Part shown: positions 2,714 to 59,000 of the stretch, in pieces | Position numbering within the stretch: position 1 is the stretch's first letter | Layout of the letters: each line of letters starts with the position of its first letter | Source of the DNA: Balanoglossus misakiensis | Lineage: Eukaryota > Animalia > Hemichordata | Length of the DNA stretch: 64,000 nucleotides | Direction: 5' to 3' | Assembly (NCBI GenBank): GCA_040954595.2 | Contig: CM082587.2 | Coordinates: forward strand, 8,933,403-8,997,402 | Made by a program: the position numbers and the translations under genes | Notes under the pieces: generated by a model | Databases searched by the model: none | Told to the model about the DNA's origin: nothing | Seen by the model: only the letters and a program-made list of their open reading frames with translations

Positions 2714-12584
<9,871 letters not shown>

Positions 12585-13589: not shown

Positions 13590-18684
<5,095 letters not shown>

Positions 18685-27800: not shown

Positions 27801-29659
27801 TGCTTAAGTCCCGGGGTGTATCATTCTAGTCAGTCAGTACAGTAGAATGTAGTATATGATTGATGTTTTTGTTAATGGCAATACCCAGGTAAATGTCATC
27901 ACTGCGTCTCACGTATGTCATGCCACAGGCTTGTGTTTTAATGGTAGAATGTGCGTGGGCTACAGTTTCATAGTTTTGTCTGGTGTGACACTCCCTATAA
28001 CTCTTCAAAGTTGATGAATGTAAACACGAGCGGCCGGGATCGAGTATTAAACATGAAGCAGATGACAAAAAGTGACAAGACAGCCATTGCGCATGACAAA
28101 GTCCCAAAAATTCCCACAGAGCGGTTCAAAAATTAAATGTCCGTACATACATGTACAACAATATCTCTATTATATTTATTTGGCTTAACCCCAAATTTTT
28201 CCCTGTTGCATGCTAGTTCAGGGGCCACTATTAGCAGTGCATTATTGAGTATTATATTATACCAGTATATTGATGGTGTAAATCACGCTATTTGATTGGT
28301 CGAGACACGACACGTGACCGTGATATATTAGCCATATACCACAGTCATATATCATAGTCAAAGAAAATGCCTTTTTAAAATGTTTTATGCAAAGTTTCAA
28401 TATACTGGCATAATATAATAGCAATAAAACACCCCCAGCCATGGTATATCACTCGATTTTGACCAGTTCAACTCCATATACGCACTCGCTATCGCTCGTG
28501 CGTATATGTCGTGAACTGGTCAAAATCTCGTGGTATACCATGGCTGGGGGTGTTTTATTGCTTAATTTTAGCAGCGCTGGATCGAGCTCTCATCCAATCA
28601 GAATGGCGGATGGTAGCATGATATAATATAATATGCTTTTGCAATCATTTTAAAACATTACGTGAATACTATACAGAGTTATTCACAAAATGCAGCCATG
28701 AATCATTGACAAGGGCTGAGCGGTGTGTGTGATCTAATGGACAAGCTGTAGCGTAATTATCACACACTATCATACCTTTATGTTCATTTCACTTCATTTT
28801 GGGGAACATTTGAAGAGTGGCGAGCTACAGGCTATGAATCAAAAGCAGACATAAAAATTGAATAAAATTGTTACAAAATTTGGCAAATGGATTTGCCAAG
28901 TTTCAGTCACTTTAGTACCCAGGGACATACACATGAATCTAACTGCCATATTGAGGTTGTATACAATGAAAACCAGAAATGCATAAAGGTGTAGAATACT
29001 CCAGCTTTGCATGTGATTAAATCTATATGCTGTTAAAATACAATCTATAAAATTGATAAGGATATTTTAATACTCACCAAGATCTCTAGCTGTTTTCTTG
29101 AGTTTTTCATTAGATCTACTGATAAGAATGATGTTAACTCCTTTGCTTGCTAACTCCTGAGCATAAGCTTTTCCTATTCCATCAGTTGAACCAGTAACCA
29201 CTACAGTGAACAAAAAAGTACTAGACAAGTTATTTTCAATGACATTTAGTCCCCACTTGAACATGAGAAGAAAGCACTGAAAGACATTCGTGTTCAATAT
29301 GTAGTATGCACCGTGTAGGACCCACTGTACATGGTGTTGCTGCAATTTTGTAGCCCCGCGACTATACCCCGCCTATACCCGTCAAAAACAAAAATCGTCA
29401 AGGCTATATTCGCGGGGCTACAAAACTGCAACAATACATGGTGTACGTACCTACCTGCCCAAGGTCCAAAACAAGCAACAAGATCCCGTCGTACTCTTGA
29501 GGAAAGATGGAACCTGACTGTATCACATAGATGAACCGCAGTATTCACAGCTTTCTTGGCGACATAAAATGCTCCAAAAAATGCCAAAAAGTCATTGTAA
29601 GTTGTCACTGTTTTAGTGATTTCCCCCAGCAGAAAGTCGAACCTGTCTACCACTGCCAT
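24822..29659 (-). CDS. HSDL1: Hydroxysteroid dehydrogenase-like 1 (SDR, 17beta-HSD3/12 group), 7 coding exons, ~354 aa
   Basis: Exons 29659-29455, 29200-29078, 27638-27528, 27067-26967, 26684-26568, 25521-25300, 25007-24822 (1065 nt). N-terminus [11 protein letters not shown], cofactor motif [46 protein letters not shown] and PEWLWMWG all match HSDL1 as I recall it. Confidence 0.92.
28256..28627. mobile_element. Non-autonomous element with a strong internal hairpin (28421-28561); its terminal segment recurs inverted at ~43065-43110
   Basis: GCAATAAAACACCCCCAGCCATGGTATA ... TATACCATGGCTGGGGGTGTTTTATTGC. 28585-28627 is a close reverse-complement match to ~43065-43107. Confidence 0.7.
29337..29434. 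mobile_element. 98-bp MITE with a 9-bp TSD (TACATGGTG), in HSDL1 intron 1
   Basis: TTGCTGCAATTTTGTAGCCCCGCGA ... TCGCGGGGCTACAAAACTGCAACAA. TSD at 29328-29336 and 29435-29443. Confidence 0.8.
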
Positions 29660-31039
29660 TTTCCTTTGACCTCAGGTGACCTGGCTTTGACCCAGCTTTG
29701 ACCTAACTTATACGCGCAGGGCATTCCGCGTTGAGGGCGCCCACAAGTTACATTCATCTATCTCATAAGCAGATAAGAAAATACGTCGCCGTACTCTATA
29801 TTTGGTGGTAGCAATCCTTCACGTCCAGATATATGTCCATGCGAAGAGACTGTGTGAACTCAATTTCAGACGAATATACAAACCAAGTCTGCAAGAAGCA
29901 GTCGAGTCGCATCGATGACTTAGGAGTTGCTAGCATTTGCCCAGCCATGGGCCTAGATGTGAATTAACCCAGGCCTGGCATAACCAACATTCTCATAACA
30001 TTTGTGCATTTTGCGATAAAAGTTTAACAAGTAAAGCTCAGTTGCATGGTTACGTTTATTATTCGTTATCTTTTCTATATTTATTCGTTTCCCCGTGAAT
30101 TCCAGATTTAGTCAACTCAGGGGGAAAAACGGCGTCTAGTTTCTAAACCTTATAAACTGATCTGACCAGATTACTTGTTGAATTTAGTGCAACATCTAGC
30201 TTTTCTATTTTATCTTCATCAAATGATTCATGCAAATAAAGAATCACTTCCCTATGAAATGGCGACAGAAAGCCAGTATCAGGACAGTCGACAGTTGTTA
30301 AAGTTACTATAGAAACTAACTATGCCTACTAGGTTGCATTATACATAGGTAGATGTTAGAAATCAATATCAAAATCGGTTTCGAACTATTCATCCAATAC
30401 TTGTCATCGGAAAGCGTGTTTGCTAAGTCTCTTGAAGTACTTTGTCTTGCACAAGATATCGATAATTTTAATCCCATCATGATGATAGTCAGCAGTTATC
30501 ATTGGAACCCCAAAAATTCTGAGAATAAAATGATATAGTCAAAATAAGCTTCTAAACACCACAAGTCTTCAGGGTCACAATTTGTTTTGCAAAGAGTAAG
30601 ATTTTGCTTAATCCATGCTATTAAATGGAATGAAGCTTTTCTGTAATGTCTCTTGCAGTTAGATCTTTACACATTGAGATATTAGAATGAAAGTACATCC
30701 CAAGTGACTTGTTGGGAGCATCGGGCCACCTAATCCCAGAAAATTGCAATCAGATCTGCTTTTCCATTTACCAATCTAAGCCCAACTATTTGTGTATTAT
30801 TTAGTTGGGTTGGGTTATTTATTTAGTTATTTCTACATATTTTTGACAATATTAATACATGATGAACACTATTCTCGACAAATAAAATAATGGTGTGTTT
30901 GGAATCATAGACACCATTTATCTTTTGGTCAACTCTGATAACAGTCGTCAAAATTGCTATGACAATCAACAAATGAAGTGCTGACAGGGGAGAGCCATGT
31001 CAGATCCCATTGGATGGAGGCGGAAGAGAAGATTCATCA

Positions 31040-33348: not shown

Positions 33349-35712
33349 ATGACGAATACGCGGAGTTTTGTTTGCATCCTGATATTATGTTTCCTGTCAG
33401 TAGTAATTCTACGAGTGTGGATAGGTATGTATGTGATATGTAGACATTGCAGCAGTCGACGTACGATCGATCAGAATTCATTGCAGCTGTAGCCTCTCTT
33501 TTTCAATTTGAAATAAAACGCGACTTCTTAGGCTACCAGTAGGCCCACAAATTCAAGGTTTCTGAACAGAGAGAACAGAACACATTTAGTAAAATCGAGT
33601 CGGATAAAGGTCTATATGAATGGTAACAGAAATCTTGTAAGAATTTTAAGAAGTTAGATTATACATTGAACATATATTTGCCAATGAAATACCACAAACG
33701 CGGCATGGATGGCTAATGCTTCATAGGGCTTGGTGTATACACCAGCTGTTATACAATGCACTACATGGGCGAAGGTCACCTAGTCGATGCTTCCAGGCCA
33801 CGTCTTGTGAGAGAAATGTTTTGCATGACCTGAATATTACAATTAGGCCAAAATAAAAAAATATGTGCTGTTTCGATTACCCGATCTACCCTAACTTTAA
33901 CCCGCCAACCCTAAACTTTTTAGAGCTTCCTAAACTGGAAGTGGAAAAAACAATGTCAAATATACAAAATGTACGAAAATTGCTAGAATCTTGCAAGAAC
34001 TATGACGTCATTCTTCTACACTACGGCGGCCAAATATGTAAACAAAATTGCAAAATAAAAAAAAATTCCCTACCTACCTACCCTATTTTTGAAAACCATG
34101 TAATCGGAACAGCACATATTTTTTGGCCTTATGATGTAATCTGCTTGTAGGTATTCAATCACCAAAAGTTCACACACATACACATGAAGAACGCCGGGTT
34201 TATCTATCAAAGTTTCTCCTTTGGCAATAATTGTTTTTGCTTGGCCAAGTAGAATTTGCCTAATGTTTATACGTCAGCAGCGGAAATACTTTTCCTGTCG
34301 AACTTGCTGAATATTCTCTCCTTATACATGGCTTACTCTGTATGAAGAGAGACCTTTCAGTTTCTTGTCGATAAATCGCTTAGTTGCACATGTATTAAAA
34401 TTATGTAAGTGGTTAAATTTATGTGTATAACTACCAAACTAAATTCTTGTACCAAACTAAAGTCTCATACCGACCAAATAAATAGTATACATTGTACTCG
34501 AGTTCTTAATATCTCGTATTTTATTTTCAGGCTTTTCCAAGCAACGGCAATCAAACACAATCTTGAAATATGCGACAAAAGTTAATTTGAAATATGCTCC
34601 GGTAAGGATCAACACTAAGGTTACTCCACATGTTGGCAATAATTCTCTGCCCTTTCCTTTAGTAAACAATGTCAGACAGATTTCCTTCAAACATGCTACA
34701 AGAACAATGTAGTACAAGTCACCTTTCAAGGTATCAACCCTTTTGCAGACATGCCTTGACTTCATACCATGATTTCCTCCAATCAGCGTGAAACCAGCGG
34801 GGAATATGTCATCGACAATGATGTGTTGGTCGTATGTCTGGCATGCACACAGTTTTTGCGACGTGTTTATTGAACACAAACAGATCCCAGTAAAACACGT
34901 TTCTTTTACAGGCCACCTTTCCAACGCACCGTTCTCTCTTGAGCGAGATCTTTAATCAAAGAAGACATAATGTGGAACTCGGTTGCAAACATTTAATGAA
35001 CGAGGAGAACACGCGACCAAATGTAACCCTGCAAGATAAACACCTGATAGTTGACGACAAACATAAAATAATGTTCTGCATTATTGCCAAGGTCGGCACA
35101 ACCCAGTGGAGATATACGTTTTTGAAACTTGCCGGAACTTTGCGCCCGGACAAAGGAGTACATTCTCAACCTCTCAAAATGGCCCAAAGGTATATCCCGA
35201 AATACAAAAACTACACCAAGATCATGTTTGTACGACATCCATTTGAGCGGCTGCTGTCCGCTTTCCTTGATAAATTTATAGAAAAACCCCAATATAGCTT
35301 CCTGAAGGCGTATGGTAAGGAAATACGGCACGTCCCAAACCAAAATGGATCAGTAGATGATAGTTTAACCTTCGAAAAATTTGTGACCTTTTTGCTGAAA
35401 AGAAACCCCAGCAACATCCACTGGAAACCATATTCCAAAGCATGTGATCCTTGCAAAATAAGGTATGATTATATCGGAAAATTTGATAGTCTTTATGCTG
35501 ATGCGCAATACATTTTCAATGCAACAAATGTAACCGTCGAGATTAATGCAAAAGGTACTAGCCACGCGACAAATAGTTCCACCAAGATCAGAAGTTTCTA
35601 CAGGCAACTGAGCAAGAAGCAGGTTCTTGGACTATATGAGATGTATTACGAGGACTTTATATTGTTTGGGTATCCATATCCACGTTTTTATCTGGACTTA
35701 GCTGTAAACTGA
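33349..35712 (+). CDS. Golgi carbohydrate sulfotransferase (Sulfotransfer_2, CHST8-14/CHST11-like), 3 coding exons, ~315 aa
   Basis: Exons 33349-33424 (MTNTRSFVCILILCFLSVVILRVWI, type II signal anchor), 34531-34601 and 34912-35712 (948 nt, phases consistent). 5'-PSB-like motif IAKVGTTQW, 3'-PB motif FVRHPFERLLSAF, HWKP...CDPC..RYDYIGK, and Y..DF.LFGY. Confidence 0.88.
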
Positions 35713-36482: not shown

Positions 36483-37739
36483 GTGGGTGAGTCCTGGCGT
36501 CGTGTCATATAAGGGGTGGTACCTAGACAAGAGGTTAAGCTGTAACTCGGGCTCTGTTTACCCTTTGAACGATTTGATTCCACGCATTACAGTCGTACGC
36601 ACGCGCGATCATTTCCTTTTAAGTTTAATGTTCAAACGGCGTCGTCGAGGTTGAGTATTGGGCGTCTTCTGAACCCCATTTCTCGATTATACTCACTGTT
36701 CATACGAGCTACTATGATTTACACTAACGATGCTGTCTGTCAAGTTCGAGTTGGCCCTTAAGACATAGGTATGTTTTTTTTTCTTGGCATATGCATAGCA
36801 TGATGTGCGCTGAAGCACTATGGACTGGATTTTCTGTCGAGCACCACCCCAATTAACACAATCCACGATATAAGCCCTAAATACGAAACAAACTCAAGCT
36901 GTCTACACGGAAATCGATATTGCATTGGGCATTTACTCTACCAAACTGGTCAGAATGTTACAATGATATACCTTGTTGGATGCAGAATTTCATCTCCTTC
37001 AAAAATTCTCAGGTTCGGGATTCGATTGGTTCTACGGTTTTGCAGAAATCTACCATAATTCGGGACAAAATGGTACGAAACGAAACTGCAATATGGGCTA
37101 AATACAACGATTCTATTAACATAATTTATGCCTACTTTACAGAAGTTGTCGACAGACTAAGAGATTAACTTCTGCGTTCAGAGATAAATACGACGACCGT
37201 CGATTGAACCTAAACTTATAAATGAGTGACGTTCTTATAGAAAATAGGTTTAGTTAAGATCAACTGAAGATGATTAGCCGAAGCGTATGCCACGTAGCAA
37301 CTGCAAAACGTAGTAGCTCGGTCGTTGTGACGTCACACGTACGCCCATGGTTAGACCGACAATATATGCCGTGCCTTCCAGATCAGCCAGCTCTCAAAAC
37401 ATAAGCAGAAATGTCGTTCAACCAAGGAGTGGCCTCTTCTTGCGGAATTTGCCTAAAAGACGACACGATATTTTGAAAATGATATGTAATCAATTTCGGC
37501 TCAGCAATGTGATATTTGTAATAATTTACCCGTACAAGTGACAACATGAGTACACAATTAGGTCACTGACATTCCGACCTATAAACCTTTGAAATTCAAG
37601 CCATACCAGTCTATATTTACGTTTCTCGCATTTCAAATTGTGATCATTACTTGCTTAATTCCTTATCACGTTTTTTTCAATTAAACACAACTGAAAATGG
37701 GATAATAAGATCTTAAACATGTTCATGTGTTCACAGAAA

Positions 37740-39036
37740 ATGGCGGCGTTACTGGTAGCAAATGAATGGATATCAAACAACGCGATTTCCCCAGTCCCTT
37801 ACGTGAATCGACAACTGGCCATTGAGATTGCAAAGAAGACTGGATTACAAGTGCATTCGACAGTTATCGATCCCAATGTGTCTGAAGAAATAGACACGGA
37901 TGCCAGACAGTCCAACGTGACATTGATCAGACCCCACTTGACAAAAGAAATGAAAAGGCTGGATGAAAAGCCATCACGAAAATGGTTAATTCTGCATAAA
38001 GCTTATTATCCCAAAATCCAACGTTTGGAGCAACGTACCCCAGTACGCTTGGTGATTGGCCACGCGGCATGCGGGGAAGGCAACACAGCCGATGCTGCTT
38101 GCAGCATAGTTAAGCGTGTCTGTAAAGATGCTCATTTATGGATAATCATCCACATCATACCAGAACGTCTAATCTACCAGCCAAAGGAGTTTAGGCATTC
38201 CAGCGGATTACGAGAAGAGAAAGAAAAGGAAATAATGGAATATGCTGAAATGTCTGAGGTTATGGCTGCAGTTGGACAAACTGTATTTCGTCATTTCAAT
38301 AACCAATTTCGAAGTTTGGCTAGACGTGATGATCTCGTCTTCAAATGTTGTTTGCCATATCCGGATGATAAATTCTTGAGACTCTCCTTTAGGAAAGCAG
38401 AGATCCCGGTAAATGAACACTTGGAAATTCTCATGGTAGGAAACGCGGGCATTGAAAGTCCAGAGCAGTTGGGCCGGTTTGACAGTTTACTAGACGCAAT
38501 TTATGAAGCATCCAGCGGTCTTCAGTTTCCAAAGTTGAAGGTTCATCTTGAGAGCATCCCCGAAGAAGAATCAAAGTCATGTCTTATCAAAAAAATTGCC
38601 AAAAAATCGGGCCCTTCTAGTCTCAACATCGTTACCAGTTGCAATACCAAGACAGAAGCTATAGTGACTGCTGTGCAACAGTGTGCCGTGGTAGTTGACC
38701 AGGACTTGGAAAGTACCTTTTCCATCATTGGTTTAAACGCTCTTGCAGCAGGCTCGCCTTGCCTGGTCAGCAACCACTGCGGTTTGGCAGAGTTTGTCAA
38801 TCAGGATGAGACTCTCAGGCCTTATGCGGATGCAATCACGATTAACATCGGGACAGGTTATAACCGTGAATCTATGGTTGAAAAGTGGTCATGTTCACTA
38901 AAGAGGGTGCTTCATAACAACGAGAAAGAGTCTAGGAGAGCAGAGAAATTGCGTGACTTAATCCGAACTTCGGCGAGCGAGGGTCAAATTGCCAAGGCGA
39001 TGCAGATACTAATAGAACAGTGTCCTCGCGAAGAAG
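37740..39036 (+). other. Glycosyltransferase (GT-B, Glycos_transf_1/GT4-like) domain encoded by one large exon
   Basis: LLVANEW...VNRQLA, VIGH, H.IPE, A..SEVMAAVG, ILMVGN and LNALAAGSPCLVSNHCGLAE follow the pattern of invertebrate GT4-like domains. The E-x7-E motif is degenerate. Confidence 0.7.
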
Positions 39037-42000
39037 GTATGTTTTAGTGATATAGTCTTTACCTATTTAAATATATCCACCGTTGAGTGTCTTAACGTCA
39101 CTCGCCACAAAGTGCTCGTACCAGTATGGAAAATTTCGTGCACACAGCAAAAGAATAATCGTGTACGACATGATGGATGTTGCTGGAAACATCGTTTATC
39201 AATCCTTCTGATACATGTTTTTTCCATCTTATAATTCAACTCCTTAATGTGGAGTTTTGACAGAACATATACAGTGCACTGAAAATCACATGACTAAGTG
39301 AAGTTATTTGAATTTCAGCTGAGGCAGTAAATCGACCTGGCCCGTCTCCTGTCTCATCTGGAACCCGAACAGAACATGATAGAGTGCAGTCTAGCATCTC
39401 TGAAGCGCATCGCGTTCCTGGCAGTGGTGGTAATATACTTAATATGATTCTCCGCTCATTGCGAGGTCTCGCCATACTTGGTTACTTTACCGTAGCATCG
39501 GGTTGCTTGCCAAGTAATTCAGGTCAAGCTTTGTACTAAACTAGAATAGGTGCACAGTTTGATACATTTGTGTGTCGTTTTAAACGATGGGCCAGTCGTT
39601 GTTTGCCCTGTGTCGCATGAGAATGCCCGCCCATATAACTGCCCAGCCATGCAAGGTCTCGTGGAGTTCTGAAAATGGTCTATTGTCAGTTTGTTTGTGT
39701 TTATTGCAGTGCAGAATGTTTATTTATCAATAGCATAATATCATGTCCACGTAAGAAATTCCATTATTATACATCTGGCACCGAGAACAATAGAATTTAG
39801 CGTGCACTAAAAAAGCCGTACGGAACGGTACGTACGGAACGCATGTTAAATACGCCTTAAGTTTCAAGGCACCCCAACTCACTGTGTACAGGTATGCGTT
39901 GTTATGCATAATTATTCCGTGTTATATACTGTGTATGCTTATTTTCAAGTTCTTAAAAAGCTATATACTGACGATTTTCTCTTATTTACCACGCGGAGAT
40001 TTTTATCTTTTCAGGAGACGGTGCCCATAGAGGTGAACGACCTTCATCGTCAACGCATGCGCAATCGCAAGCACCACACAAATCAAAGAAGGGCACATCC
40101 AATAAGTCTGCAGCTGATGGTTCCGAAGACATAGGTAAATTTAACTATTTTAACTAAAATTTGGATCTGTCATCGTTGACGGTACAACCCATTTCTCGTT
40201 TCTTTTTACAATACTGCATATCGTTTCTTTTGGAATTGGGTGATGGGGTATACCTGGGGCCCACCCACATTCCCATGTTCAATGGGGGGGGGGGGGGGGG
40301 GGGGGTCATTCACCTTTTGATATCCACAAAATAGAATCCATCCCCAGGCTGAAGAAACTGACCAGTCCCTGAGAATCATTCTTTCCTCCCAGATATCAAG
40401 GTGACTGTACAAGATGGAATGGGTAATGAGCCTCAAGCAGAGCTTGAGCGAGCTGCCATTGACGTTATCACAAACGATGACCAATTACCAAACGTCAAGA
40501 AATATGTTCAGAGCAACGGCGCCACTATAGGCGACATTTCACATGGGCAAAGTCTCATTGTTTCTGTGAAATGTACAACGTTAGAGGGTCTGGAAAATAT
40601 CTGGTCTGACATGTGGACTGGAAAGCTGAACGATGTATTCCGGAAGGATCTGATTACAAGGAGGGTACTGACACAAGTGAAAACGACAACAATTGACCTG
40701 AAAGCGAATATCCGAACATGGGAATATAGAAGTTGCAAAGCCAACCTACAAGTTGCTCTGAGAGGTACCTTCTTGTTTTTAAGTTTTCGAGTGGGCTCTC
40801 ATGATGATTTTGCTGATACTAGCATGTCCGTTGTTCAGATTCAGTTATGTCATTATTATGTTTCCTTCAGCAAAACATCTTTACCAAACTTACATTCTTC
40901 AAGTAATAAATATGAAGAAAAACACATATTTATAATCAAATTATTTACATTTGGAACAGAGTCGAGGAAACCGTCATCCGGGATCCGCTGTAACATTAAT
41001 CTCTTGAACTTATGTACCATATGTGACCACGCAATATATAGGTCTAAACGGGTTAACCTATTGCATGGTCACATGGTATTTGTTTACAACTTAAATACTT
41101 CTGTTTTATTCATAGAACAAGAAGTCGTATCATCTAGTAAAGTTGGTGTGACCGAAGGTATAAGATCACTTCGAAGAAGGCGATCAATGAAGGTGAACAA
41201 TGTTTTCCTTGGAATAAATCAACGTTGTCATGTTTTCTAGGAAGCGCATTCTCTGTCGATGTTTAATGGGGCTATGCTTCCTGCGCCGAAAATGTGTTAC
41301 ATTGTGTGATTGTTGTTGATAAAATAATTGTCAGGGCGATGGAACAACTTTATCATTATAGCTATGCATTTAGGAAACTTTAGAAACCATCAATAGTTCA
41401 TGTGGTATTGTCAATATAGCTGACTTTATATTCTATCACCAAAGAAGCTGCACTCTTTCATCAATATAACATTGCCACAAAAAGTGTGTTTAAAGCTTCT
41501 GTTTTGAGGTTTCTAAATAAACAACCCCCCCCCCCCCCCAATGAACAGGTGTTATCTTCATCTTGGTTGTCGATCATATTACTTGTCATGAACATTTTAT
41601 GGTGGGGAAAGTAACTAAATTGTTCTATGCATCCATCACTATACAGATAATCCAAGATCCAATTCATGGTACTATCGAACTGGAGCCAGTATACACCACC
41701 ATCATCGATACACCTGAGTTTCAGCGTTTAAGGAATCTGAAAAAGATGGGTACAGTGAACTTTGTCTATCCCGGTGCAGTTCACACAAGATTCGAACATA
41801 GCATTGGGTAAGTGGTTGACTCAAATGTGAATTCAAAATTGGAACTTAGAAAAGGACAGGACTTAGTTGAATTGAGAAAGTAAAGTTTCATTACACAGTT
41901 ACAGAGGAACCGCCATTGGTTACAAGATTGTTAAGATATTTTGGATAAGGTTATGAATGCTAATGACTCAAGTTACTAACTTGTTTAGTGTCACAGAAAT

Positions 42001-45000
42001 CAGTTCAATAGGTACCAAAGTTGTATTCAAAAGTAAGCAACGATTGTATAATTGACAAACACTTGTTCATGTCAATTGGATGACTAGGACATGTCACCTT
42101 GCCCTGAAGTTAGTCAGACACTTGAAAGAGAATTATCAAGATACATTGGCGATAACAAAGGAAGAAGAACTTTGCGTTGGTCTTGCTGCACTTTGCTTCG
42201 ACTTGGGTAGGTACATGATTTGTGTGCAAGTTTTGTTGTCAGTACTACGATTACAACTGTGTTGTGCTGGTGGTGTTGTGTTGTGATGTACGTGTTCTGT
42301 TGTGTTGATATGTTGTGTTCTGTTCTGTTCTGTTGTGTTGATGTGTTGTATTGTTTTGTCCTATGTTACTTTCTTTTGTCTTCTCCTTTGCTGAGTTTTG
42401 TTGTGTTTTGCCCTTTTGTATTCATTTCTGTTGTTTATAAGAGGGGTTGCGTCACTGTGGTACGTTACCATGCATAACACAATCTTGTGCTGTTTTACGC
42501 ACTGATACGATCTCTTCCTTATCATTTAACGTTTTGTTTTGGAACAACAGGTCATGGACCATTTTCGGAGCTCTTTGAACAGCGCATAATACCATCACTT
42601 ATCGCAAATAAAACCATCAAAAATCCTGAAAACGAAGAGTGGAAAGTAAGTTGCTCATTGAAATCAACCTGGGGGTTCATTAGTGTTAAGTTCATTATTT
42701 TAAGTGACACAGTCTCATCGCCAAATATGGCCTAATACTTTCGTACCCAACCATATCAAAAATATGTAACTCTACAATAAATCATACATGCGTGAGATAC
42801 CGTCACAGTTATGTGAATTGTAACTCCCATGATGCCACATTCCTTGAGCAGTGCTGTCAAACATAATGTTGTTTATATATGCCACAGCACACACTTCTCT
42901 CTGTCAAGATTTTCGACTTGATGGTGGAAAAGTACAATCTACGAGATGTTTTTGATGAGTATGAATACCGCATGGATGACTTGCACCTCCATTTGGTAAA
43001 AGAAATGATCTACGGCCCTCTTCAGCTCGGTAAAAAAGACTATACCAAGGTAAAGTGGAAATTATATTATATCATGCTACCGTCCACCATTCTGATTAGA
43101 CGAGAGCGATGGTAAAATACTGTTTTACCACTGCTGGCAGTGGTAAAACGGGCCCCGGAACTAGCATGCAGCAGGGAAATGTGCGGTTAAACCACAGTTG
43201 TGTGGGATTAAACCAAATAAGTAACATAAAAACACTTGCTATATGTCTAGAATTGTACCAAAATCGTATGTTATTACTTAATTAATGGACCATTATTATG
43301 TTGGTTTTTTTGTGATTTTATTCGATTTTCCCCAATACATCCAAGAAAATTGGTTTTTGGTATTGAAATCTGATTTTAATACAACTGAAGCATTATTAAC
43401 TATATTTTTTTCTTCTTTTTTTAGGCTGAAACCTACGAGGCAACAAGTTCATACAGATATTTCCTGTATGAGGTAAGAAACATGATTCCAAACTATTTAA
43501 CAATATTGTACATTCATTTATTTCATTTATTCACAAGATGTCAGCATACTACGACCACGTGCATTATTCAGAACAATTAGCTTTCCAATAAATCTGTAAG
43601 ATGTAGTCATGAACTGAAAATGTGTTTACAGTCTAACTGATCATTCAAGGGTGAATGTCATGTTTGACTAGCAATCCCATTGTCAAGTTAATCTGTTTCA
43701 TATTGAACATACATGGACTTGTATGAAGAATTTCAAAATTTTAAGAGCTTACACATTATGTTCTGTAAACCACTTTATTTTCGCGAGCAATACATTTTCG
43801 CGAAATACGCGAGAGCCAAAATAGCGTGAAAATAAAAAGTCGCGTAATTTTTTTTGAAGATAACGATGAAGTGAATGAAATAAGAGAACACGAAAATTAA
43901 TGCTCGTGAAATAGTGCCTCTCTCGATATCGCGAAAATTTCAACTCGCAAAAATAAAGTGTTTTACAGTATTTGTCAACTTTAAACTGTTTGCAATAGAC
44001 TTTACTGAAGCGCTTGAAGAATGCTAATTTTACATTTTTAATGCCAACGCAGATAGTGTCGAATAGACTCAATCATTTCGACACCAAAGAATGGGACGGT
44101 TTTTCCCGTGATAGTCATCAGCTTCGCATAGTACATGAGATCGGGAACTCAATGCATGATCGATTCATCAAATTTGCAAGGGTATTGGAAGATCCTGACA
44201 CATTTAAATCTGCAAAGCGTCTGTGTTTTCGCGACAAGGTAAGGGCAGCTTTATATTGTGATCATATGAATTTTCCGAAACCAGGGACAAAGGTTATCTG
44301 ACAGACCAATAACTGATTTGCGTAATGTTGCTCATTTTTTTTATTCAAAAGAAGATATATTGTATATTTACATTGCTTGATATATTTTTGCACAATTTTT
44401 ATTTTGCGCGTTGACAGGAAGCCACCAGTACATGTGAAATGCTCCTGGCCAGAGACAGACAGAAAAACCTAACAAGTTTTCATCCAGTAAAACTTGCTAT
44501 TGATACCATGTAAGTAGATAGTAAATGATCTTTTGGCAAATGCATCTCATTTCCTTAGTGTTTAGTTTGTCAAGAGGTTGTAAACGTATATGTATATATA
44601 ATAACACATATGAGTGTTTCGTTCGGTGAAACTTCTCACATAGTGCAAATGTATGCCAGATTATAATTGTTATGTTGAATGAAGTGTGTAACAATGATGT
44701 CATGCTGTGAATATATGATTAATCATGATCTCATCTGTATGACGTCACACTTTCAGGATAACAGATGCCGTTGTTGCTGCTGTTCCTCATCTGAAACTGA
44801 GAAAGCGAAATGGGTGAGCAATTTGCCTGCCCCCCCCCCCAACAGTCTACATGACGAGAGATGGGGAGAGGGGGCAGAGAAAAAGAGGTGGATATTTGAA
44901 AGAGATAGTTGAAAGATAGTTGAGAGGTTGAGCCAGAGTGAGAGAGAGAGATGAAAAATAAGTGAGAGATATTTGAGAGGGGGGATCGAGGGAGAGGGGT

Positions 45001-48000
45001 GAAAGAGAGAGAGGAAAAATAAGTGAGAGATACTTGAGAGGCTTTGAGAGGGGGAGGGAGGGAGAGAGGGCTGAAAGAGAGAGAGGAAAAATAAGTGAGA
45101 GATACTTGAGAGGCTTTGAGAGGGGGAGGGAGGGAGAAAGGGTGAAAGAGAGAGAGGATGAGAGGCTAGAGAAAGAGAGTGAGGGAGGGCCCTCCATCTG
45201 TCGAGGGAGAGTGAGAGAGCAATTTTTTGATTACCATATGCATCATAGGTGAATTTCAGTTTGCAATTGGACAAAATCATGTCAATTTTTATAAAAGCTT
45301 ACATGAATACATAATTACAAATGTACTTGCAATGGTAGTACTAGTATTGTATTCATATACATGGCTAGATAACTTACATGTATATGCCTTCCTGCCTTCC
45401 ATCTTCCTTCTGTCCCTTGTTTGCTTATGTAGTGCAGAACTGTATGCACTTGATTTGACCGAAGCTTTGTATTGTTCAATTCAGGGAACTTGCTGACTTG
45501 TCAGAAATGCTGATTGACATGGACGTGTTCACAACCCTGGATGATAATACTATCTGGAACGAGATTCTCAAGTCATATGGTAATGAGAAGCTGGCAGAAG
45601 CCCGGTCAATACTGGAAAAGGTTCAGCGTCGTGCAATCTATAAGTTTGTGTATAGAATGGATATTCCTGACAACAAGAGCGAAAAGGTAACACTGTGTTT
45701 ACACATTATCTGTTGGTAATACACATTGCAGGCATCTCAAGTACAAGTAATTCTTGTTATAACCATGGAATTAACAGGGGCCAGGGGAAGATGCTTTGGT
45801 CCCATCAAGATTGTGGCAGTGCATTGATGGTTCAGTCGTTTACTTGAAATCCTTGCCATTACTTTTAATTAATATGCATGATGAATGCTGGGCCACCAAT
45901 GGACAGCTATATGTCCATACCATATCTCCATACCAACATGTATTTGCAAGATATGAGATTTTAGCAGACTTTGAACTAAATATGATTTTATACATGGATT
46001 TTTGTTTATGCCCAGGACATAAGAGTAGAAGACATATTGGAATGTAACGCAAATGATGGATCTTTGGGAAAAGAAGATCTGTGCTTAACGGTAAATATTC
46101 TAATTTTATATACCGGTAATACGCAGTCAATCCTGGTTCTTGTATTATGCGGAGGATTTCTCTTATTCTGATAAAACACTGGCAGTTTTCTAAACTGAAG
46201 TAACCAATCTCTCAAATGTCTGTGTATACTACTAACATACAAGTTCTACGACAGACAAAATATAGAGTGACTTGTTTTGCGGGTTTACTTCTTGAACAGT
46301 CACTGCTCATGTGAACAGAGTAGACACATAATTCTGGCTGCCTTAAATAGGTTTTCACTTTGCGCTAGGGGGTCAAATCACATTGCATTCTGGGCAAAAA
46401 GTCGACAACCCACTGTAGTAAGAGATAGAAGAAACGATATGTTTACTGTATTTCATGACTTCCTTTGGTCAAACATGTCTGTCTTTGTAGTTACCATATT
46501 AAACTCATTAAACTTTTTTTACATTTTGTTATTTTTTCTGTTAAAAAGTTTCAAAATGACCCATCATCACTTTAGCTTTAATATGAACTCCCATTTCTTA
46601 AACATGGCAAAAATCAGCCATCTTAAAAATTGTGTCGACCATATGTGATTTTCATCACTCACATAGGGAGCTTAAAACCTATTTAAGGTAGGGAGAATTG
46701 TAATGCAGCTTTTATGTTTGAAACACAGATGGTGACGAAGGATTATGGACTAGGAGATCAAAATCCATTGGATGAACTGCTTTTCTACAGCAAACAAATA
46801 CCTATTGCGAGGCACGCTCTTCCTGGGGAGGTGAGCACGCCCAGGATTTTAAAGATTTCATCTGTAAGTAAAGTCAAAATTAAAAGGGAAGTATAATGTA
46901 TTATCATCTTTTCTAGTAGGCAAACTTGACCTTGCCAATGGATAATGTAAACACAAAATTGTTGCATCTGTCTTTAAAGAGGTCTTCAGAAAATATACTC
47001 TAAAAGGTTTCAATTAGGTATTTTTCTAATCTGATTCAAACCAGATGTAGTGTTAGGTGCTGGTGATAGTTTGGGCTGTTCTGTTCTCTGTCTTGGCTGT
47101 TCTCAGATGTAGGAGCCACGCATTTTAATCACATTGGTATATTTCATGACTCTAACCTGCAGTAGTTAAGAAAGACAAATATTTTAAGTCCTGTTTCTTT
47201 ATGACATATGCTAACATTGCTTTGTATACAGTATAGCCTATCCATATTGTATAATGAATGTTTGCATTCATGATCTATGTATTGTTTGCCAGCCAATGTT
47301 TTAAATCATCTCCACAGGTATCAGATCACATGCCGAAGATATTTCAAGAACGGAAACTCTTTGTTTATGTGAAAGACCCCTCTAAGATGGATATCGCAAG
47401 ACGTGTACTAGAGGAATGGGCGGACAAAATCATTCTATCCAAGGTAATGTTGTTCATGGCCTTTATTGATCAACATAACCGACTAGCTATAAAACTAATT
47501 AAATAACTAATTACTAACCAACTTACAAACCCAAACATATTCACCAATTTATTAATTACAAATCTTGTAATTATTTGTTATTAATTAATTAATCAACCAA
47601 ATTCATCTATCAGATAATTAACCATTTACGTAATTCATTTAATACGGGGTGTGAGTTTTCCTATAAGTCAGTCAACCAATCTATCAATCAATCCTTGTGA
47701 ATGTGTAAAATTATATGTCTGATGTACACATGTGTTTGAAAAAAGATATGGAAAGAAGAGATCAGCATTCAATATAACCCTGGATAACTGTCGAACTTTA
47801 CTTGTGTCTCCCTCTCTCTCTGATTGCCTGTGTATATACCCAGCTTCAATACGTCTACCCCTCTGTATATTTTTCAAGAATATGCATATTGTCATTTTGT
47901 AGATTACCATGCCCTATGGTACAGAAGGAATTCCTATGAAGCCTGGATTGAAGCGTGAACACGGCGAAGGTTCTCAGGATGAAAGTGTTAAAAAGGTCCC

Positions 48001-48022
48001 AAAATTACATGAAAGAAATTAG
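37740..48022 (+). CDS. Chimeric protein: GT-B (GT4-like) glycosyltransferase-like domain + low-complexity linker + TRADD-N-like domain + SAMHD1-like HD/dNTPase module with a degenerate active site; 18 exons, ~1173 aa
   Basis: Exons 37740-39036, 39319-39429, 40015-40134, 40393-40764, 41116-41192, 41647-41807, 42088-42206, 42551-42645, 42888-43049, 43425-43472, 44053-44238, 44418-44509, 44757-44813, 45485-45686, 46016-46090, 46729-46830, 47318-47443, 47903-48022. All introns are GT-AG, phases chain correctly, 3522 nt with no internal stop. SAMHD1 motifs: MKIIQDPIHG, IIDTPEFQRLR, HTRFEHSIG, DLGHGPFS, FLYEIVSN, RFIKFARV, CFRDKE, DYGLGDQNP, FYSK, MPKIFQE. The join of the GT part to the HD part is inferred from splice phases. 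Confidence 0.82.
40393..40764 (+). other. TRADD-N-like domain exon (phase 1-1)
   Basis: GQSLIVSVKCTTLEGLENIWSDMWTGKLNDVFRKDLIT..VL......DLKANI...EY..CK..L matches the remembered TRADD-like N-terminal pattern GS.I..V.C.....L..LW.DY.SG.L. Confidence 0.7.
43763..43970. mobile_element. CTGTAAA...TTTACAG MITE (TA-flanked, Tc1/mariner-like); related copies at 6519-6683, ~11240-11398, ~56815-56955 and 57227-57440
   Basis: TIRs CTGTAAA.CAC.TTATTTTCGCGA / TCGCAAAAATAAAGTGTTTTACAG. 57227-57440 is a close copy. Confidence 0.8.
44851..45218 (+). repeat. Polypurine (GA-rich) tract with a ~70-bp tandem duplication
   Basis: GAAAGAGAGAGAGGAAAAATAAGTGAGAGATACTTGAGAGGCTTTGAGAGGGGGAGGGAGGGAGA is repeated. Confidence 0.85.
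46330..46699. mobile_element. Second copy of the 20363-20702 TIR element, in an intron of the chimeric gene
   Basis: Direct sequence similarity and matching TIRs. Confidence 0.75.
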
Positions 48023-48179
48023 TCTGATTTTAATATTTTAGAAGTTCACGTACTTGGCCTCTGCCCACAATCTACATGGATGTGGAAGAAATTTTATTAA
48101 GTGTTTCATTGTATTCTCTGGCAGATCTCTCACGAACCTAACAAAATATGTCTTTTTTTTCATGTTTGTTTGTTATGAG

Positions 48180-48310
48180 TGATGACGTTTCAAAAGATGG
48201 CGCGTGCGCTCAGGAACTACATCCAGAAGGACGTCATGGAGAGATGTCGGGGTAAACTGCACTACAAATTCCGCCGAGAGACGATGATTAAATATCAAAA
48301 CATGACATGA
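48180..48310 (+). pseudogene. Orphan terminal exon of a Spi/PU.1-family ETS transcription factor (recognition helix and wing)
   Basis: 48182-48310 reads [42 protein letters not shown], against PU.1 [30 protein letters not shown]. It is preceded by CTAAC (~48138), a T-rich tract and AG (48178-48179). I found no N-terminal half of the ETS domain in the window. Confidence 0.75.
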
Positions 48311-56029: not shown

Positions 56030-59000
56030 CTACAATAGAAATCGGGCGTCCAGTAACTCCTGTGGGATTCCAGGTAAGTCTCTCACACTAACAGTCTTCT
56101 TCTTGCGCATGTGTCGTGTGTACTCGACGTACATTGACCAATTTGATGTTCTTGAACTGAAGAAGAGTTGGGCTCCTGCAAATAGTGTACAGATTACTTA
56201 AGGCAATGTCTGTGTCAGAATTGTACAATCATATCCATATTCTAAAGTTCATTGGTCAGATATTAACATTGTCAGTTCCAACGGTCACAGAACAGAACAA
56301 TCAACAAAACACACAGAACTAACTTGAGTTCTTGAAAGAAAGATATATGGACTTCCAGCAAAAAAAGACCAGGATGTGGTGTTACTGTTGGGTGTTTCGA
56401 AAATAGTAAGCCAACCCTGCCCCATATGTTGTAGCTGCCATCTATCAATCTCTGGGGGTGAAAGGGCTAACCCTTTCCCCCCAGTTCCCTCTTTAGAGGT
56501 CCAACCTTACCACAGAAAACAATGGGTTTGGACTTAACCATGGTGGTGAAAGGGTTAAACAGGTTTAACTGTACTGGTACTTACTTTCTGCCATTTCTTG
56601 TTCAATCAAAGATAACACATAGTTGTCATGTTCATACTTCTTGAGCGATGGCACTATCTTAGTTAAGTCCTGAGCATAGTACACACGTAGATCAGTGGCA
56701 CTGAGATAGGATCCTATGGTCTTGTGACAACAACAGAATAAATTCAGGTTGAATGATAACATTTTTGCAAACTTGGCAAGAGCCCTCCCCCCCCCCCAAA
56801 AAAAAAAAAAAAAATTGCGAAAATTAATAGTTGTGAAAGGACAATGTGTACAATTAAATGTTTGTCGGAGATAGGAGAATGCACAAATTAATTGTCACGA
56901 AAAATTCGCCTCATGATATTGCGAAAATTTCCTGTTGCGAAAATTTTTCGGTTTTAAAATATCTACACTATATCTGTGGTACAGCTCTTGTCCAAATTCT
57001 GACCAATCACCATCGAGTTACCTACCTGAGCATATACAGGAGTGGCTACATACAAACATGATAATTTTTCACGCTTCATTGTGGACTCGATTTCACGTAC
57101 AATAATCGGTGCTGCTTCCTGAAGCAATTGGAGATTCTGCGGAACCTTCTTTTCTTTACAGTCCCTGGGCTTTTTTGTACATCTACATATAGTACAATAC
57201 AAATAAGAAATTAAAATGCTGTGTTATACTGTAAAACTATTTATTTTCGAAGGTAATGAATTTTCGCAAAATACGCGAGAGCCAAAATAGCGTGAAAATA
57301 AAAAGTCACGTAATTTTTTGAAGATAACGATGCAGTGAATGAAATAAGAGAACGCGAATATTAATACTTGCGAAACAGTGGCCTCTCTCGATATTGCGAA
57401 AAATTTTAACTTGCGAAAATATAGTGTTTTACATGCAGTATATCCTTGACTACAAGGCCTAATGATAACTGAAAGAATCTTGTTGACTGTTCCACTATCT
57501 GGTGGGGAGGGTGGAGCCAAGGGGTGTGAGGACGGTGACAATTGTACAGTCCAAGTACCAGTCAAATGTCATTACACTTAAAAGGATATGAATGAAGGTA
57601 TAAGACTCATATTAAATTTGATTTTTTCCTGTTAGGGAGCTTTCAGTTGTTATATGGGTGGGGGATGGGAAATGGGGAGATTACATTTTACATGTAATTT
57701 CTCATGGCCCACCCCCCTTCATAATAATTGAAATCTCCCTTATTGGGAAATTACTAGTACTCACTGTGCTGAATACTCAGCGCTCTTATTTCTCCAGTGC
57801 ATTACTGCATAGTTGCCATGGCAAAGCTTCTCTCCTCCCTCCAAGGCTAAGCGACGAATGTAGGGCGCTCGCACCAGATATTTTTCAACGAGCGCTTCTA
57901 TCTGCGTCATACACGTGTAGTTTGCGTCGGAGGTCCTGAACGCTAGACACGGTTGGGGTGGATCTCCACGAATCGCGTCCTCGCGGAAAGTGGTGTAATT
58001 TTTATGAACGTCGGGGAACGTTATATTTTTGAAATAATTGGCAATGAATTTTATTGCGGCTTTGTTTGGGAACACATCGTCCTCACACATACGCATCTGG
58101 TATTTTGTGCACAACTCGGTTTTATACTGACGTCTCGGTACGGCAGCAATGAGGTTTCCCTTCTCAATACCACCATTGCACATGTCATAGAAGTCTTCGA
58201 ATGGAAGGGTGGGTAGCAGTTCGTTTAGTGCGTCGATGTCAAATGTCTGATCAAAGCGTCTGGGCGTGTCAATGTCTGTTTCCTGGAAAGAGTGGGGTTG
58301 GAAATCATGAGTGACTATGCCGAGTCTGTTTGCAACAGCAAATTGTAAAGTCCATCGGTACATGCTGTAGAAACTGCCCGCCCCGCCCGCTTGTTTATAC
58401 GCAGGTATAACAAACTGTTGCCGGAGTTTTCCTTGTTTTCCGTCTGTCTGGAATCGCGGGAATTCTTTCACATCCTTGCAATCTGGGCTGCCCAACGGCA
58501 CATCCGGGGTAGAAGTTTCCATCTCAGAATCCAACTCTTCGTTGTCCGAACCTTGAAGTTGCGAATCAAAGTCATGTGACCGACTTGTGTTTCCAATGGT
58601 GAAGTTCTCAGTTGTCAATGACAACCCTTGTGTGCCGGAGCTATGAACATCAATATTGGACTTGACACTTTTCTGCGAAAATGGTACATATTATGGTTCT
58701 TAGATGTAGTGTACAAAGAAAATGTATAAAACTTTCTTAATTTATTACAAACTGTACTATACACCTTCAGTAGATCATGAGTTTTGTACCAAATATTTAG
58801 CTATTATGGTAGCCCGCATATGTACCAGTAACTGAACTTAAAATAGATGACTAAACAGCTGAATAACAAAAAAAACACGAAAAATAGTAATATGGTGTTT
58901 TTACCATCACCCTTTTATAATATATTTATTTTGTTCTAACATAGGAATCACCATGATGGACATACATTATTATTTGATTTTCGCGTGAACTGCTTATATC

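Follow-up and report, generated by a model that had tools for sequence, protein, structure and literature searches.

A hemichordate protein joining GT4-like and TRADD-N-like domains to a SAMHD1-derived module, a candidate non-enzymatic sensor-adaptor

We analyzed a 64-kb stretch of Balanoglossus misakiensis DNA (hereafter, the window), in which a forward-strand gene (37740..48022) joins a GT4-like domain, a TRADD-N-like domain, and a SAMHD1-derived HD module. Judged from their residues, both enzyme domains, the SAMHD1 module and the GT4, look dead, a feature overlooked by the first-pass annotation of this DNA. We tentatively propose, with a confidence somewhat short of an even chance, that the gene encodes one protein working as a non-enzymatic sensor-adaptor.

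The gene model proposed in that annotation, 18 GT-AG exons chained into a stop-free ORF of 1173 codons, was confirmed. All 17 introns are GT..AG, and the 18 exons join into a coding sequence of 3522 nt (1173 aa plus the stop codon) with no internal stops and no frameshifts. The claim of a single gene is also supported by the RefSeq protein XP_070560518.1 of Ptychodera flava (P0001, 1161 aa), which is 55% identical end to end in a single colinear BLAST alignment (662/1193 columns) and has residues aligned to all 18 exons. P0001 is annotated with two isoforms, and their 3-residue difference falls exactly at the TRADD-N/HD junction. Between the two species, the domains are 55–67% identical, the HD module being the highest (67%), and the linker is 27% identical. 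The weakest exons are the two of the linker, exon 2 (39319..39429), which is S/G/H-rich (7/25 aligned residues identical), and exon 3 (40015..40134; 10/40). Both are phase 1-1 and have lengths multiple of 3, so their exact use, and the boundaries of exon 2, are given by splice consensus only. At the other end, exon 18 (47903..48022) encodes the stop codon and the basic tail already noted in the first pass; its KR-(acidic spacer)-K motif, which we take to be a possible bipartite NLS on the basis of the consensus, has a KR..K spacing that recurs in 4/4 rows of the clade.

Exon 1 (37740..39036), intronless, encodes the N-terminal GT-B domain (aa 1–432). Its assignment is supported by the Pfam GT4-conflict profile PF20706, which matches residues 4–410, including both Rossmann halves, with E 8.1e-33 and 114 bits against a cut-off of 26. 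The residues expected of a working transferase are replaced: the pyrophosphate-binding Arg and Lys correspond to N235 (38442) and G245 (38472) in the window (N and A in P0001), the two glutamates of the EX7E motif to S325 (38712) and N333 (38736) (S..N in P0001 too), and the N-terminal Gly-Gly loop is lost as well. In a profile of 84 GT4-conflict references, only 22–25% identical and chosen by one motif, these positions are conserved (Arg 84/84, Lys 84/84, Glu 81/84 and 83/84). The EX7E motif binds the donor, and a change of either Glu to Ala inactivates TviE, a GT4 enzyme; in some other enzymes of GT4 the loss of one is tolerated (PMC8760489). We thus predict that the GT4-like domain is inactive as a transferase, and the earlier idea of a working glycosyltransferase effector finds no support, since neither glutamate of EX7E is present and the Arg/Lys pair is absent too. 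The stretch that replaces the original residues is itself conserved between the window and P0001 (29/36 identical), and in both GT domains a Glu lies one residue ahead of the canonical first Glu. Using the GT exon as query, no sequence match was found in the PDB or in plasmids, no near-length homologue among 7991 candidates, and no related locus in the searched metagenome or genome contigs.

Exon 4 (40393..40764, phase 1-1; aa 510–633) encodes the domain previously described as TRADD-N-like. The AlphaFold2 (AF2) model of this domain (pLDDT 85) retrieved with Foldseek the TRADD-N structures 1F2H and 1F3V at ranks 1 and 3 of 500 (prob 0.99, TM 0.51–0.52, E about 0.01). With VIA-align, TRADD-N (Z 6.1, rmsd 4.0, 102 aligned) came second, level with unrelated ferredoxin-like folds. 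By hmmscan the domain matches neither PF20694 nor PF09034, and its atlas lead (0.87) is to a cluster in which 54% of the members carry PF20694; the search of an exon-4 profile against the PDB gave a single match, judged to be due to chance. Overall, the evidence gives moderate support to a TRADD-N fold. The tripeptide ending in Ser563 (G-Q-S; 40551) matches, compared by eye, the GS of the published TRADD-N alignment, and Ser563 is likely the conserved TRADD-N serine. The domain also lies between two globular ones, and by eye its sequence would be assigned to the DEDD2-type clade. Binding to TRAF is not safe to assume, because MATH/TRAF is not a universal partner of TRADD-N (Kaur 2021, PMC8195603).

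The stretch encoded by exons 5–17 derives from SAMHD1. Residues 648–1101 of P0001 match residues 115–566 of human SAMHD1 with E 2e-86, and a PDB search run with P0001 gave a SAMHD1 match with E 8e-89. The first-pass annotation had described an entire SAMHD1 HD module, which is correct for its length and not for its catalytic residues. The absence of a SAM domain was confirmed by a profile search run on P0001, in which NACHT or other P-loop STAND domains likewise had no Pfam match at E up to 5. The protein length is accounted for by the GT4, TRADD-N, and SAMHD1-derived domains, and we rejected the membership in the NLR/STAND families.

We then followed the functional positions of human SAMHD1 along the exons by residue alignment, taking the residue lists for the allosteric sites AL1 and AL2, the metal site, and the substrate pocket from PMC7045340. 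The joint to the HD module is exon 5 (41116..41192), whose last codon is K659, the equivalent of K116. Exon 6 (41647..41807; 46/53 residues identical to P0001) keeps D137, Q142, and R145 (41707, 41722, and 41731) as well as H167, and carries Q149->K. In exon 7 (42088..42206) the HD motif is broken by H206->F (42197), with D207 kept, and in exon 8 (42551..42645) the general acid H215 is E (42568) and D218 is E. Exon 9 (42888..43049) keeps H233, which is Tyr in P0001, and exon 10 (43425..43472) is identical to P0001 at 12/16 residues. Exon 11 (44053..44238) presents D311->K (44086), K312->E, and Y315->G, and keeps R333, R352, and K354 of the dNTP site. Exon 12 (44418..44509) encodes the helix alpha13, where the tetramer-interface residues N358/D361/H364/R372 are S/E/L/L (0/4 contacts kept), together with Y374->S and Q375->F. 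The C-terminal lobe continues in exon 13 (44757..44813; 14/19 identical to P0001), exon 14 (45485..45686), which keeps the partner-chain GTP-site residues R451 (45630) and K455 (45642), exon 15 (46016..46090; 15/25), and exon 16 (46729..46830), which keeps K523 (46792). The module ends in exon 17 (47318..47443; 25/42).

The losses are concentrated in the catalytic site. The metal quartet H167/H206/D207/D311 is H/F/D/K in the window (2/4 kept) and H/L/D/S in P0001, while all four ligands and H215 are kept in 128 of the 148 scored outside HD homologues. Within the substrate pocket (Q149, L150, R164, K312, Y315, D319, R366, Y374, Q375, N380, and D383), 4/11 residues are kept. Conversely, the GTP site AL1 (K116, D137, Q142, R145, R451, and K455) is kept 6/6 in the window, in P0001, and in the P. 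flava paralogue P0026, and the dNTP site AL2 is kept 6/9, namely the phosphate and stacking residues, with N119Q, F157Y, and N358S changed. Considering the 73 columns whose conservation among 152 outside HD homologues is >=85%, the residue is retained in the window at 10/10 allosteric positions, 44/51 others, and 6/12 catalytic ones; the catalytic positions differ from all the rest (54/61 kept) with Fisher p=0.005. In human SAMHD1, H206R/D207N, D311A, and H215A each abolish catalysis, and H215A still tetramerises (sources including PMC7045340). With H206, D311, H215, Q149, K312, and Y315 lost, an active dNTPase was rejected.

The catalytic losses of both enzyme domains occur at the same positions in P0001. 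In a quick tree, the clade of dead copies lies inside a group of hemichordate SAMHD1-like genes retaining these residues (SH-aLRT 99 for the hemichordate clade). The HD tail is intron-rich (13 exons), and thus a fresh retrocopy origin was rejected; the module may rather have arisen by DNA-level duplication during the hemichordate SAMHD1-like expansion and then have been attached behind a GT4-TRADD-N cassette. Pfam found GT4 or TRADD-N in 0/34 longer HD matches and in 0/13 others (47 of 181 proteins), and among the proteins examined P. flava is the sole other case of the fusion, a count to be read knowing that Pfam misses this TRADD-N and that the library collapses relatives within 50% identity.

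The HD module of P0001 was modelled with GTP as a dimer, with a score of 0.81 (best control 0.00) and pLDDT 87; the runs agree in 100% of contacts, and the two chains each contribute AL1 residues to the interface. On eukaryotes the mark of this score is reached by 17/29 solved pairs and 0/30 single chains, and the pass may come from likeness, SAMHD1 dimers having been already solved. A single-sequence AF2 model of the full-length P0001 (pLDDT 36) was excluded from the structure searches.

The first-pass annotation had suggested that the HD module acts as a nucleotide-dependent oligomerisation switch. Since the catalytic site is selectively lost and the allosteric GTP site is intact (6/6), this idea comes out strengthened at the level of residues. 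In SAMHD1, AL1 takes a G of ssRNA or ssDNA via D137/Q142/R145, driving the formation of dimers and tetramers (PMC10312740). In the sensor-adaptor that we propose, AL1 would still bind guanine, either that of GTP or that of a G exposed on single-stranded RNA or DNA; AL2 could perhaps bind a dNTP. Binding would close the dimer, and possibly higher oligomers, as in SAMHD1, with nothing hydrolysed. Oligomerisation would in turn reconfigure the TRADD-N bridge and cluster the N-terminal GT4-like domains. The cleft of these domains, which is remodelled and conserved, would act as a surface for binding or recruitment and not as a transferase. The output could be a signal for immunity or cell death, possibly in the nucleus, the immune role being suggested by family context only. 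Some features weigh on this scheme. The four alpha13 residues and the AL2 base-reading N119/N358 are changed, and so the protein may no longer form a tetramer or sense dNTPs; residues of AL1 are also part of the dimer interface, and they may therefore be kept for structure alone. Furthermore, GTP is always present in cells, which would make AL1 alone a poor switch.

Four other explanations were considered. The dead HD module might be a regulatory subunit that co-assembles with active SAMHD1-like paralogues and tunes or damps them, or recruits them to a TRADD-N/GT4 complex, by analogy with the pseudo-caspase cFLIP. P. flava has candidate partners, paralogues keeping the catalytic residues in the covered parts, both on the same contig (P0082 and P0178/P0121) and on another one (P0029 and P0070); the dimer surface is kept in the P0001 model, and in the cyprinid proteins P0005, P0006, and P0027 a single chain carries an intact HD module together with a broken one. 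Nevertheless, we consider this explanation unlikely: the HD gene is single copy within the 64-kb window, and the conserved GT4-like cleft would be left unexplained.

Similarly to the integrated decoy domains of plant NLRs, the SAMHD1-like module could instead be bait for viral proteins that attack SAMHD1-like enzymes, with binding or damage freeing TRADD-N signalling. The module is a dead copy of an antiviral enzyme, located where GT4-TRADD-N proteins are variable, and the catalytic positions differ between the dead copies (F/L, E/S/N, and K/S), as if relaxed. However, the module is the most conserved part of the protein and not a fast-evolving one, a pure bait would not require every AL1 residue, and we know of no antagonist in hemichordate viruses, all of which makes a decoy quite improbable.

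It is less probable still that the protein is an altered enzyme, whose former active site would now fit a different nucleotide (3'-modified, cyclic, or oligomeric) or whose GT4 would still transfer sugar through a shifted motif. The shifted-motif option corresponds to the effector idea of the first-pass annotation. Coherently with a new ligand pocket, Q149K, K312E, Y315G, and Q375F are identical in the window, P0001, and P0026, H167, D207, R164, D319, R366, and D383 are kept, and the Tyr315 replaced here by Gly normally blocks 3'-substituted ligands (PMC7045340); the shifted Glu of both GT domains could be read in the same way. Against it, the SAMHD1-like module is without its general acid and two of its four metal ligands, the GT4 has lost its Arg, its Lys, the second Glu, and the Gly-Gly loop, and TviE does not survive the loss of either Glu, even if the tolerance of one loss in some GT4 enzymes softens this point.

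Finally, it is very improbable that the locus does not encode one functional protein, whether because the prediction merged two neighbouring genes or because the gene is a duplicate in decay. In favor of this, no transcript was seen for the window, with no RNA run listed over 38500-48100; an in-frame stop follows exon 1, 9 nt into intron 1; a short GT4+TRADD-N form could result from an A[AT]TAAA in intron 4 (40905); and three paralogue models of P. flava (P0026, P0031, and P0032) are without the GT4 part. Against it, no A[AT]TAAA occurs in 37681-40904, where a poly(A) signal after 39047 had been named as the sign of separate genes, all phases chain, the frame is lesion-free at 45% protein divergence, and the full-length colinear P. 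flava counterpart and its isoforms led us to reject two genes as the main reading.

The sensor-adaptor that we favor resembles known proteins in part. GT4-TRADD-N proteins of the DEDD2 clade with variable C-terminal modules are known in hemichordates, amphioxus, and cnidarians, the Saccoglossus examples ending in Bcl-2, LRR, or ankyrin (Kaur 2021, PMC8195603). Our protein shares with them the N-terminal GT4-conflict domain, the TRADD-N between two domains, and a variable C-terminal module, which is here SAMHD1-derived and intron-rich; moreover, its GT4 is without the donor-binding residues, whereas Kaur 2021 treats GT4 as an active effector. Thus, of the claim that the architecture is undescribed, the part concerning GT4 plus TRADD-N with a variable tail does not stand, and the SAMHD1 tail was not found in print, including the searched Kaur 2021 supplements (part of file 4, and exclusive of file 13). 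In a literature search with most subscription journals outside its scope, we found neither this architecture nor dead invertebrate SAMHD1 copies, and TRADD-N and SAMHD1 appear together in apparently one study, the journal version of which just names both in a list.

Compared with human SAMHD1 (PDB 4Q7H and 7UJN), the protein retains the whole HD and C-terminal lobe (E about 1e-87), 6/6 residues of AL1 and 6/9 of AL2, and, as predicted by modelling, the same dimer; it differs in the replaced H206, D311, H215, Q149, K312, Y315, Y374, Q375, and alpha13 contacts, in the absence of SAM, and in the fusion to GT4 and TRADD-N. In coral GT-NLR proteins, a nucleotide-binding switch is coupled to an effector or adaptor. 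The iSTAND modules, inactive STAND proposed as nucleic-acid receptors (Kaur 2021, PMC8195603), are comparable to these and to our protein in that a dead or switch-type nucleotide-binding module is tied to an effector or adaptor. Unlike in both, P-loop/NACHT is absent here, and the switch would be an HD-fold dimer, not a STAND ring.

A parallel in design is P0108 (675 aa), an independent protein, itself outside any described system, with a broken SAMHD1-like active site (H206->R and D311->A), D137/Q142/R145/R451 kept, and an apoptosis-type adaptor, which is a C-terminal Death domain instead of the N-terminal GT4+TRADD-N. This raises a broader scenario, which we regard as rather doubtful: that in several animal lineages the guanine site of SAMHD1 has repeatedly become a receptor of innate immunity, dead copies fused to such adaptors sensing G-containing single-stranded nucleic acid, or a virus-driven dNTP rise, and signalling by oligomerising.

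The functions of SAMHD1 that are independent of dNTP hydrolysis are debated, including nucleic-acid binding via the GTP site. The protein described here would be a natural separation-of-function SAMHD1, deprived of catalysis but not of the allosteric site, and maintained over about 45% protein divergence; it makes the role of the GTP site without catalysis directly testable. Animals have many GT4-conflict domains, which are assumed to be effector enzymes; the present case shows that some of them may be dead and serve for binding. If the protein signals through TRADD-N, it would represent a new type of sensor, an HD-fold oligomer switch, in invertebrate immunity; and if the repeated conversion were true, a new class of nucleic-acid or metabolite sensors would have been made from a restriction enzyme.

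The HD module of the gene at 37740-48022 on the forward strand (SAMHD1-derived, exons 5-17) appears, on its residues, to be catalytically broken and allosterically intact. These exons match SAMHD1 structures with an E value of about 1e-87 (searched with P0001, the Ptychodera flava protein XP_070560518.1, and transferred to the window protein by pairwise alignment), and this match anchors the human residue numbering. Six positions of the catalytic module are substituted (H206 to F, D311 to K, H215 to E, Q149 to K, K312 to E, and Y315 to G), and the same six are lost in P0001 and in P0026, another P. flava homologue. Of the entire SAMHD1 module proposed by the first-pass annotation, the homology over exons 5-17 stands and the catalytic residues do not. 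According to passages of PMC7045340 and PMC7311409, the human enzyme is catalytically inactive once H206/D207, D311 or H215 is lost. Conversely, following the residue lists in a section of PMC7045340, the window protein retains 6/6 residues of the GTP allosteric site (AL1) and 6/9 of the dNTP site (AL2). We also counted conserved columns among 152 outside homologues from 175 proteins, with clade members and short matches left out: of the 73 columns conserved at 85% or more, the window protein retains 10/10 allosteric, 44/51 other, and 6/12 catalytic ones (p = 0.005). The labels F165, H376, and H210 in this count are background assignments, beyond the cited residue lists. The alpha13 tetramer contacts (4/4) and both AL2 base readers, N119 and N358, are changed, which speaks against a simple reading. 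When the P0001 HD module was modelled as two copies together with GTP, the score was 0.81 (best control 0.00, contact agreement 100%, pLDDT 87), and AL1 residues from both chains lay in the interface; the mark used was reached by 17/29 eukaryotic solved pairs and 0/30 single chains, and this pass may be mere likeness to solved SAMHD1.

The domain encoded by exon 1 is probably broken as well. It matches Pfam GT4-conflict (E 8e-33), in agreement with the GT-B domain called previously. A motif scan gave 177 loci, 122 with the motif in frame, of which 84 were long enough to serve as references (49 from bacterial genomes, 35 from metagenomes). The pyrophosphate Arg and Lys, each present in 84/84 references, and both glutamates of the donor-binding EX7E motif (81/84 and 83/84) are replaced in the window protein and in P0001; the roles of these residues are taken from part of PMC8760489. 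Identity between the references and the query is only 22-25%, the query retains only 29/66 conserved columns overall, the invariance of the Gly-Gly loop in the references follows from the construction of the set, and one Glu of the domain lies a single residue off the canonical EX7E position, all of which qualify this result. The stretch in place of EX7E is identical at 29/36 positions between the window protein and P0001, so that remodelling of the cleft seems a better reading than decay.

Pfam gives no match for exon 4. Its predicted fold is confident (pLDDT 85). The first- and third-ranked Foldseek matches were the two TRADD-N structures (prob 0.99, E about 0.01), supporting the TRADD-N-like assignment made at first pass, and VIA-align ranked TRADD-N second, level with further ferredoxin-like folds (Z 6.1, rmsd 4.0, 102 aligned). 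By eye, the exon, including the Ser, also agrees with DEDD2-type sequences from corals and echinoderms in a published alignment.

The architecture had been put forward as possibly undescribed, which holds in part. GT4+TRADD-N proteins with variable tails are already known from hemichordates, amphioxus, and cnidarians in the portions of Kaur et al. 2021 (PMC8195603) covered here, where supplement 4 gives 149 occurrences (30 of them examined). The HD tails mentioned there are those of the NCOA6 clade (one sponge) and bacterial GT4+HD only; neither a SAMHD1 tail nor any mention of an inactive GT4 was found in the examined parts of the text and supplements 1-12. By architecture, the window protein belongs to these variable-tail proteins and would work alike, whereas its defining residues place it outside both the active SAMHD1 family and the active GT4 enzyme family.

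The reading we favour, plausible if short of probable, is that the GT4, TRADD-N, and SAMHD1 fusion is a sensor-adaptor, every step beyond the sequence pattern being one that we infer. Human SAMHD1 AL1 binds guanine in ssRNA/ssDNA (part of PMC10312740), and TRADD-N has been modelled as a bridge keeping its neighbours inactive until a signal (sections of Kaur et al., PMC8195603). Guanine at AL1, as GTP or in ssRNA/ssDNA, would close the HD dimer, closure would reconfigure the TRADD-N bridge, and the dead GT4 domain would be clustered and act as a binding module.

A quick ML tree was built from 60 HD modules (20 hand-picked plus the 40 best full-length matches, SH-aLRT only). In it, the window protein and four P. 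flava proteins form a group (support 99) nested in a clade whose 14 rows are SAMHD1-like proteins of P. flava, Saccoglossus, and Glandiceps (support 99); the remaining members of this clade retain the catalytic residues where covered. On this placement the host is likely an enteropneust, and catalysis was lost before the window gene and P0001 split. The HD module is divided among 13 exons, and each of exons 2-4 is phase 1-1, so that DNA-level duplication with joining through a phase-1 intron would fit, rather than the retro-insertion proposed for other tails in part of Kaur et al. (PMC8195603). One 47.28 Mb P. flava contig carries a local SAMHD1-like expansion (P0026, P0031, P0032, P0082, P0121, and P0178), part broken and part intact where covered, with several gene models partial in appearance. 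As rivals of the sensor-adaptor reading, a role as regulatory subunit of active SAMHD1-like paralogues is unlikely, an integrated decoy distinctly unlikely, and an altered enzyme or altered pocket less likely still.

An artefact or decaying gene is highly improbable: the gene rebuilt from sequence has 18 exons, 17/17 GT-AG introns, and a stop-free 1173-aa product, as the first-pass annotation had it, and appears to be real. P0001 was the single relative obtained with exon 1 as query (longer proteins, 6012 candidates), and is colinear with the window protein from first to last domain (662/1193 columns identical). Identity is high in the GT (55%), TRADD-N (58%), and HD (67%) regions and low in the linker (27%), which is what a maintained protein would show; the model is least secure at exons 2-3, in the linker. 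In a second isoform of P0001, three residues differ, precisely where TRADD-N joins the HD module; RNA alignments usually underlie RefSeq isoforms. The segments 41647-41807 (161 nt) and 44418-44509 (92 nt) presumably have the sizes and boundaries of human SAMHD1 exons. There may be a non-coding first exon, as suggested by a CAG that ends 4 nt 5' of the ATG, and TGACGTCA at 37327-37334, about 400 nt 5' of the ATG, is CRE-like by consensus. The reading frame of exon 4 meets no stop for about 158 further codons (40765-41240), into intron 4 and through exon 5, with A[AT]TAAA at 40905 in intron 4, making a short isoform of GT4+TRADD-N alone possible.

In the neighbourhood, the fragmentary end of an Ets domain (48197-48307, forward strand, Pfam E 0.001), 175 nt 3' of the stop codon, may be an orphan exon or gene remnant. 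The forward strand also carries a sulfotransferase (34894-35712, PF03567) and a Ras exon (15614-15700); on the reverse strand lie aldehyde-dehydrogenase-like (5911-9035) and short-chain-dehydrogenase-like exons (25163-29671), both by eye, and a 309-codon ORF (57761-58690) with nothing above the Pfam cut-off.

Loss of catalysis in SAMHD1 copies seems to be recurrent, in cyprinid fish, snail, annelid, and P0108, a 675-aa homologue. Among 147 scored HD copies, 22 lack at least two of eight catalytic residues, with AL1 mostly retained. Cyprinid (P0005, P0006, P0010, P0027, P0046, P0090, and P0168), snail (P0033, P0054, P0059, and P0112), and annelid (P0156) proteins have lost 4-5 of the eight and mostly kept AL1. 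Several of these fish proteins carry an intact and a broken HD in tandem, then a beta/gamma-crystallin tail. The SAMHD1-like module of P0108 has H206 to R, H210 to F, and D311 to A, with D137, Q142, R145, and R451 intact, and is followed by a C-terminal Death domain (E 3.6e-15); it is probably an independent fusion of a dead SAMHD1 to an adaptor. That dead SAMHD1 copies joined to apoptosis-type adaptors make up a real sensor class is a somewhat doubtful proposition. The main interest of the window protein lies in its apparent double loss of catalysis, above the fusion itself.
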